From the NCBI GenBank assembly GCA_965644265.1, contig OZ286471.1:76136001-76199866 (forward strand): a stretch of DNA of 63,866 nucleotides. Reading direction: 5' to 3'. Below the pieces are notes generated by a model. That model worked only from the letters and a program-made list of their open reading frames with translations, searched no databases and was not told the DNA's origin. Source of the stretch: Glycera tridactyla (taxonomy: Eukaryota). The position numbers and the translations under genes were made by a program. Below are positions 53,108 through 53,893 of this stretch, one piece after another. Position 1 is the first letter of the stretch; each line of letters opens with the position of its first letter.

Positions 53108-53893
53108 TCAGAAATAACATGGAAGGCCACGAACAACGCGACCTAGGTTAGGTATGCTTGTCAAAGCGGCTTGCCTCATTTCTTTTGTATATCTTTCAAA
53201 GGCTTTTGTGTGTTTCTCTGGGTGAATCCAGTCCCGGCTCCAGGTCTTGACCATTGAGGGAGCGCCTGGCATTAATGAACCGAAACCTCGTACATGATAG
53301 AAATCGATTGCATTTGCGCTCGAACACAATAGCTCGGTTTGTTTGTTGAATGTAACTGCTCGAGCTCGGAAATCGAAGTGACCTATAAGTCTATCGATGC
53401 ATGACATCAAGACAACGATCTTGACTTTACAAGCTTTGCGAATTTTAACTGCTAAGTTAAAGTAATCATAAGCTAAAGCTTCAGGATCCACGTTGAAACG
53501 AGTAAGATCGTTACTCCCAAGGTTAATCACCAAAAGGTCAGGTTTGAGTACCGCTAATGCTAGAATTTCGTCGGCTATGTCCTCTGCATCGTCATAGTCA
53601 TTGATATAGACCACGTGTCTGAAGTTTACAGTGCTAAAAGTATCGTCTAAGTCAAGGAGGTTGGCATTTAGTTGTCCACGTGAAACGTTGCCAGAATCTA
53701 TTTCTTTATGCAAACCTGAATGAATCATGCGTTCCAAAAGTACATCCTCTTGCTGACGAGTAAAAGAATGTCCGAGAATACACGCAGTTGGAAGCCGGCC
53801 AAGCCATTGCTCTATAGGTACGAAGGGTGTTTTCCCGTGAAACCAGGCCATGATGAAATGTATCAGAAAAACAAAGCGCGTTCCGCCTACCAT
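53108..53893 (-). CDS. SGNH/GDSL hydrolase-like ORF carried by the retrotransposon (261 aa from the ATG at 53893)
   Basis: Block I ILGHSF, block III INLGSNDL, block V DWIHP. The ATG lies immediately after the A1 repeat. Confidence 0.8.
   Translation of the reverse strand: MVGGTRFVFLIHFIMAWFHGKTPFVPIEQWLGRLPTACILGHSFTRQQEDVLLERMIHSGLHKEIDSGNVSRGQLNANLLDLDDTFSTVNFRHVVYINDYDDAEDIADEILALAVLKPDLLVINLGSNDLTRFNVDPEALAYDYFNLAVKIRKACKVKIVVLMSCIDRLIGHFDFRARAVTFNKQTELLCSSANAIDFYHVRGFGSLMPGAPSMVKTWSRDWIHPEKHTKAFERYTKEMRQAALTSIPNLGRVVRGLPCYF

Follow-up and report, generated by a model that had tools for sequence, protein, structure and literature searches.

The genome of Glycera tridactyla (GCA_965644265.1) holds, in a stretch of 63,866 nt on contig OZ286471.1 (76,136,001-76,199,866; the whole of this stretch is called the window below), an open reading frame for an SGNH-type hydrolase that had been predicted from the sequence to be the first frame of a tyrosine recombinase (YR) retrotransposon. 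As the original prediction correctly stated, the hydrolase of Ngaro elements is placed downstream of YR in the literature (PMC9210276), and the locus raises the questions of whether the 5' position is peculiar to this copy or typical of a lineage, what kind of protein is encoded, and from which message it would be made.

Structure of the element and its surroundings

On the minus strand the element reads A1-SGNH-gag-RT/RH-YR-B1-A2-B2, with the following parts:

53894..54215, minus strand: A1 split direct repeat, 322 bp, with a TATA-like box about 50 nt ahead of its end
53108..53893, minus strand: SGNH hydrolase ORF, 261 aa (246 aa from Met16), with S43, N128, D221 and H224
51028..52893, minus strand: gag-like ORF, 621 aa, with C-terminal Cys/His-rich finger motifs recognised by eye
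49482..51260, minus strand: RT/RNase H frame, 592 codons from stop to stop (RVT_1, E 1.3e-9; weak RNase H-type matches)
48553..49575, minus strand: tyrosine recombinase (YR) frame, 340 aa (Phage_int_SAM_1, E 6e-4; Phage_integrase, E 5e-3)
47911..48570, minus strand: B1 repeat, 660 bp, 100% identical to B2
47593..47914, minus strand: A2 repeat, with a 4-nt overlap with B1 and no splice donor after it
47539..47592, minus strand: A2-B2 spacer, 54 nt, with a C-rich tract at its start that is common to families
46879..47538, minus strand: B2 repeat, the 3' end of the element

The hydrolase frame indeed lies between A1 and gag, since it begins one base past A1 and ends 214 nt upstream of the gag ATG (52893). 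The proposed YR retrotransposon host could likewise be confirmed, its repeats, gag, RT/RH and YR giving it a Ngaro-like structure, although the YR and RNase H matches fall below the Pfam cut-offs. The layout of split direct repeats, which is that of Ngaro elements (PMC9210276, PMC4157794, PMC7192593), was also resolved in 45 loci of the same genome, and gag, RT/RNase H and the tyrosine recombinase are all encoded on one strand, as in Ngaro. There is no target-site duplication at the B2 end, where the flanks differ and only a short A-rich core is common with the B1/A2 junction, in line with the Ngaro mode of integration without target-site duplication but with short homology at the junction. 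A methyltransferase was not matched in any of the four main and five minor frames, and the RT frame stops right after RNase H; loss of the methyltransferase can, however, mimic a Ngaro element (PMC4157794). The RT tree is composed of relatives and two cnidarian-named proteins and contains no named Ngaro, PAT or DIRS references, so that the Ngaro-like assignment is a structural one. A1 and A2 as well as B1 and B2 are 100% identical within each pair, and the element is a young, recently inserted Ngaro-like tyrosine-recombinase retrotransposon in this structural sense.

Of 53 loci, 51 have a TATA-like motif 35-70 nt upstream of the point where A ends. The C-rich start of the A2-B2 spacer, seen in the families of the 45 resolved loci, might be a priming or strand-transfer signal. 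Elsewhere in the window, a LINE that is frameshifted and encodes endonuclease, RT and RNase H occupies 1256-4877 (plus strand), and a GIY-YIG remnant at 774-1289 (plus strand; E 2.6e-4) is likely to stem from a Penelope-like element. A short frame with an HGGG motif at about 14270-14400 (plus strand), which gives no Pfam match, we take by its appearance to be akin to a host alpha/beta-hydrolase exon.

Position of the hydrolase across families and hosts

The 2.04-Gb genome was searched with the SGNH and the RT of the element, yielding 146 scored SGNH matches of 2035 candidates, with 43-100% identity to the query, and 121 scored RT matches of 6059 candidates. The abundance and identity range of these SGNH homologues imply that the ORF is not a chance frame. 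Eighty loci were retrieved (40 of the 57 RT matches without a paired SGNH, and 40 SGNH matches), of which 73 had a usable RT and fell into 40 families at 85% identity; from metagenome contigs the best 80 of 302 RT relatives were taken, representing 39 families. The RT query, like the profile used for SGNH, is biased toward the clade of the window element, and the counts are to be read accordingly.

As many as 64 of the 121 scored RT matches pair with a scored SGNH, which in every case lies 2.8-4.8 kb upstream. Amongst the loci chosen by RT, the hydrolase is upstream in 37 of 40 and downstream in none; amongst those chosen by SGNH that also have an RT match, it is upstream in 37 of 37. The amphibian-type order with SGNH downstream of YR was thus found in 0 of 77 loci of this genome with an RT match. 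The three exceptions comprise a decayed locus (L022), an inverted pair (L049) and a locus without intron 1 (L032, see below). L049 itself consists of two head-to-head copies with a single SGNH ORF, which is located on the inverted copy. In the 39 metagenome families, SGNH is upstream of gag in 17, downstream only in one (L153) and without a match in 21, of which 19 have less than 1.8 kb of sequence upstream of RT. A 3' SGNH in three further contigs (L125, L145, L151) was rejected as a genuine arrangement, as these contigs are permuted and other members of their families carry SGNH 5'; L153, in which a gag-like start follows the hydrolase, is probably permuted, too. In one other contig (L164:1176-4538) a frame of 1121 codons directly 5' of the 3' part of gag is probably another retroelement inserted in gag.

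Over 39 elements, distances in the SGNH tree correlate with those in the RT tree (rho 0.78; 0 of 999 permutations). As judged from these comparisons, the 5' position is a lineage trait common to dozens of families, which, like the location of the frame inside an intron described below, goes beyond what had been predicted. The supposition that it might mark an undescribed architecture has gained support, as neither a 5' hydrolase nor splicing in Ngaro elements was found in the accessible portions of the literature searched, a scope outside which Repbase/Dfam, the founding Ngaro papers and the supplement of PMC9210276 lie. Since the tree places the RTs assigned by name to Nematostella and Dendronephthya within the relatives with a 5' SGNH, prior cataloguing in Repbase/Dfam is plausible, and we estimate the chance that 5'-SGNH families are already recorded there, in the founding papers or in the Xenopus supplement to be only a little short of even; that these same sources already describe the intron we regard as rather improbable.

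How the 5' and the amphibian 3' forms relate to each other is a question of its own. Both might descend from one ancestral gene that was repositioned by repeats moving on a circular intermediate, a scenario to which we give even odds and which adds to our preferred explanation while competing with independent capture. In its favour, the circular order gag, RT/RH, YR, SGNH is the same in the window element and in the published 3' arrangement (PMC9210276), the collapsed assemblies L145, L151 and L125 read YR...SGNH...gag, and SGNH tracks RT across distant hosts. However, the deep split in the SGNH tree has a support of only 0.36.

Motifs, fold and conservation of the hydrolase

The motifs had been described as intact, which is true of blocks I, III and V, i.e. 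GHS (residues 41-43), GSND (126-129) and DWIH (221-224), but not of the block II glycine: amongst 74 open-frame copies from the same genome none is conserved at residues 90-103, and in distant homologues the position is variable. With respect to the fold, the Pfam match to Lipase_GDSL_2 (E 1.3e-6) reaches 29.5 bits and is slightly below the cut-off of 32.9, and a sequence search of the PDB gave nothing better than E 0.2. An AlphaFold2 model built from an alignment of 54 sequences (pLDDT 92, pTM 0.88) nevertheless agrees with the suspected SGNH fold: the top Foldseek matches listed are SGNH/GDSL-fold proteins, and VIA-align gives Z 16.8 against 4hf7 (rmsd 2.8 A over 175 residues) and Z 16.4 against PAF-acetylhydrolase. 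According to this model the ORF encodes an SGNH fold with a Ser-Asp-His triad, and for want of the block II glycine the protein would have to be regarded as a variant and not as a canonical member. The corresponding glycine lines the oxyanion hole in the esterase of the LINE ZfL2-1 (PMC3905857); because it is not conserved here, the predicted esterase activity may be low or altered.

In a set of 5.8 billion proteins the single SGNH sequence as query found no match and the SGNH alignment five unnamed proteins, and none of ten homologues looked up had a name. Met16 of the ORF matches the start position in other families. A long-branch family (L129:108-869 and L153:4788-5597) has an SGNH homologue that lacks GHS and GSND and retains DxxH. 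A weak match of the window protein (E 0.05) is to the OSK domain, which is a catalytically dead SGNH.

It is therefore to be asked whether the protein is a working esterase at all or rather a non-catalytic or weakly catalytic module that binds lipids or proteins, or a counter-defence factor. The missing glycine, the OSK match and the loss of GHS and GSND in L129 and L153 would all fit such a role. However, serine, asparagine, aspartate and histidine are each kept in more than 93% of the 74 copies (S43 in 70, N128 in 70, D221 in 72, H224 in 69), although the identity of these to the query is only about 45%, and they are also kept in most of the distant homologues; we therefore consider such a role unlikely. 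The median dN/dS is 0.08 for SGNH and 0.07 for RT in 43 non-independent pairs, and the esterase gene is accordingly under strong purifying selection. The protein is neutral in charge (pI about 7, 29 basic and 29 acidic residues), which lends no support to a basic membrane face of the ZfL2-1 type.

Introns around the hydrolase, gag and the recombinase

Joints were surveyed in those 4 of 10 listed sequencing runs, from two studies, that contain part of the element (X1-X4). The run type is guessed to be RNA for three of them and unassigned for one, so that their RNA nature rests on the junctions themselves. The material consists of contigs and not of reads, each joint being present in one or two contigs with 29-30 letters on the shorter flank; the RT region is uncovered in all four runs, which carries no evidential weight. 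A reading of the transcription start from contig ends at 53920 was dropped, as contigs cannot reveal starts. Of seven joints six are distinct, and five of these six have GT-AG ends in the sense orientation and agree well with the splice consensus, the joint 53194/53900 being the only non-canonical one. The resulting introns, together with a sequence tract in the first of them, are:

52894..53890, minus strand: intron 1, 997 nt, GT..AG; joint 52893/53891 in X1 and X4, splice consensus, conservation, loss in L032
53046..53075, minus strand: G-rich tract of quadruplex-type pattern within the 3' portion of intron 1, from the sequence
52420..52788, minus strand: intron 2, an in-frame alternative within gag, 369 nt, GT..AG; joint in X1 and X4
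49566..52241, minus strand: intron 3, 2676 nt, from gag codon 218 to YR codon 4; joint in X1 and X4
49566..51004, minus strand: intron 4, 1439 nt, with an alternative donor just beyond the gag stop and the YR acceptor of intron 3; X2 and X4
47675..49395, minus strand: intron 5, 1721 nt, with its donor at YR codon 60 and its acceptor within A2; X2 and X3, and on A1 in X1

Intron 1 spans the interval from the A1 end to the gag ATG and encloses all of the SGNH ORF except its first ATG. Its removal, seen in runs of both studies, sets the leader directly on the gag ATG, while in X4 an unspliced contig (53461-53920) crosses the donor. All 52 loci compared have the donor motif where A1 ends, none of the 52 has it following A2, and it is kept in 28 of 28 families against a background of 10%; at the other end, an AG immediately precedes the gag ATG in 64 of 74 loci and lies at most 6 nt away in nine more. 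The presence of intron 1 in other hosts is not established: four metagenome families (L103, L115, L153, L159) have acceptor-like sites ahead of gag, but most of the 17 representatives gave weak scores for a donor upstream of SGNH.

L032 (G000:C1:142391827-142401826) is a complete element with repeats 99.8-100% identical, in which intron 1 is exactly absent at junction 2614/2615 and the donor exon joins the gag ATG precisely. It is the only one of 18 scored copies of its family to be so built, the other 17 breaking at this very point; all five sisters examined are 98.6-99.8% identical to it over the gag start and have a GT..AG insert of 930-931 nt with an open frame of 262-263 codons and a GHS motif. 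The exact GT-AG ends of the missing segment imply that it was lost through past splicing.

It might still be argued that the joints in the runs derive from DNA, the sequenced individuals carrying genomic copies that lack the introns or have suffered deletions, since the library type is not recorded and an intron-less copy exists in a sister family (L032). However, all 11 close 5' ends found in the assembly, where 40 of 91 candidates were scored, read through without a break, none of them showing the deletion of intron 1. Five different GT-AG joints that occur in alternative combinations also agree with a pool of transcripts, and an origin from DNA is quite improbable. We thus conclude that the esterase ORF sits in a GT-AG intron that is skipped in contigs of probable RNA. 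That it instead stems from the recent capture of a host gene, or was inserted separately behind A1, and has no role in the element, as L032 with near-identical repeats yet no SGNH ORF might suggest, is already largely refuted by the equivalent place of SGNH in dozens of families and in other hosts, by a dN/dS equal to that of RT and by its co-divergence with RT.

Two candidate features of intron 1 did not prove to be general. An ATG shared by both messages as a switch is restricted to the subfamily of the window element, where the donor reads ATG/GT; in other families the donor has no ATG and is mostly AG/GT, the SGNH ATG typically following 9-63 nt further in. The quadruplex-type pattern was found in just 17 of 73 loci. 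As regards the repeats, A1 and A2 cease to be identical only a few bases away from the donor of intron 1 in all families of this genome (52 loci), while in L109 and L121 from other hosts the repeated stretch ends at a TATA-like motif and not at a splice donor.

Through the joint 49565/52242, seen in X1 and X4, YR codon 4 follows in frame on codon 218 of gag, which predicts a Gag(N)-YR fusion of 555 aa, or of 432 aa if intron 2 is also removed. The AG of the YR acceptor is retained in 70 of 73 loci of the same genome, Gln codons elsewhere in RT being CAA in 626 cases versus CAG in 322, and in 58 of 73 no ATG lies upstream in the YR frame. In families from other hosts the acceptor is CAG in 29 of 31, none of these 29 having an upstream ATG. 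In 48 of 52 loci the phase of the best donor in gag (phase 1) is the matching one, a bias that is partly expected from Gly codons. An acceptor before RT found no support: no more than 36 of the 74 loci of this genome, and 13 of 35 other families, have a phase-1 AG, the upstream sequence is purine-rich, and no joint was seen. Splicing of intron 5 would truncate YR, possibly yielding a damping isoform.

Proposed expression and comparison with known elements

Taken together, we favour, with a probability of roughly 0.7, an overall reading in which a Ngaro-like element carries its esterase in intron 1 and, since the SGNH ORF is inside this intron, uses the unspliced RNA as esterase message and the spliced RNA as Gag message. 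Transcription would begin near the A1 end, past the TATA-like box, giving a short first exon. Retention of the intron would produce a genome-length RNA with the esterase as its first long frame, from which a free esterase of about 246-261 aa could be translated, while splicing would yield Gag, a shorter Gag and, by the splice from gag codon 218, YR in the form of the Gag(N)-YR fusion. The esterase gene would be inherited only through copies of the intron-retaining RNA.

The existence of L032 without intron 1 suggests that the gene is dispensable in cis for one round of copying. As intron-less copies can integrate but are rare, and as purifying selection is strong, the unspliced RNA is likely to be preferentially copied or packaged, or else the enzyme favours its own RNA. 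By analogy with the ZfL2-1 esterase (PMC3905857) and with what has been suggested for rotifer elements (PMC5408684, PMC6431247), the protein might most readily bind or deacylate membrane lipids and so aid particle assembly or movement; this assignment is made with slightly less than even confidence, and the neutral charge and the absent glycine weaken it. More tentatively still, these elements may represent a widespread, undescribed lineage of animal Ngaro-like elements, connected with the amphibian form through repeats displaced on the circular intermediate, in which the esterase is made from genome-length RNA, and Gag and the Gag-recombinase only from spliced RNAs, and in which the esterase serves the particle of its own RNA, so that the intron is kept against purging by reverse transcription.

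In the accessible portions of the literature seen, the function of the Ngaro hydrolase is unproven and no route of expression is described for it, while here it is predicted to be a free protein with a defined message. Given in addition young, abundant families and a natural copy without the esterase, its role is directly testable. The persistence of a coding intron, even though spliced copies integrate, also offers a clean case of selection or packaging bias against intron loss.

Retroviruses use one promoter and select between gag and env by splicing. The window element would resemble them in that, from one promoter, splicing decides between the structural and the accessory gene, but would reverse the scheme, genome-length RNA that escapes splicing being the proposed source of the accessory protein, and spliced RNA that of Gag.

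Amongst retroelement esterases, the SGNH domain of ZfL2-1 in ORF1 of CR1/L2/RTEX LINEs (PMC3905857) likewise has an SGNH fold with a Ser-Asp-His triad, lies upstream of pol and has PAF-acetylhydrolase as a structural neighbour in common with the window protein, although no ZfL2-1 chain is among the structural and sequence matches listed. However, it forms part of ORF1p, where it follows a coiled coil, and has a block II glycine and a basic face (PMC3905857), whereas the window SGNH is a free ORF in a YR element, without a conserved block II glycine and neutral. The bdelloid Vesta and Juno LTR elements and the Terminons also have an accessory esterase, a GDSL/SGNH ORF3, for which trafficking or membrane passage has been proposed, but it resides downstream of pol and in integrase-type or Penelope-like elements (PMC5408684, PMC6431247). 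PAT-like elements in turn have split direct repeats and a YR as well, but encode a methyltransferase (PMC4157794, PMC7192593), of which none was found in the window element.

Closest in composition are DIRS-53_XT and DIRS-54_XT of Xenopus (PMC9210276), which also show the A1...B1-A2-B2 arrangement with gag, RT/RH and YR and no methyltransferase, and which, like the window element, have an extra SGNH ORF of putative function. In these elements the hydrolase follows YR and all ORFs overlap, splicing finding no mention in the accessible portion of PMC9210276; in the window element, by contrast, the hydrolase precedes gag, has its own ATG, overlaps no other ORF and is intronic.
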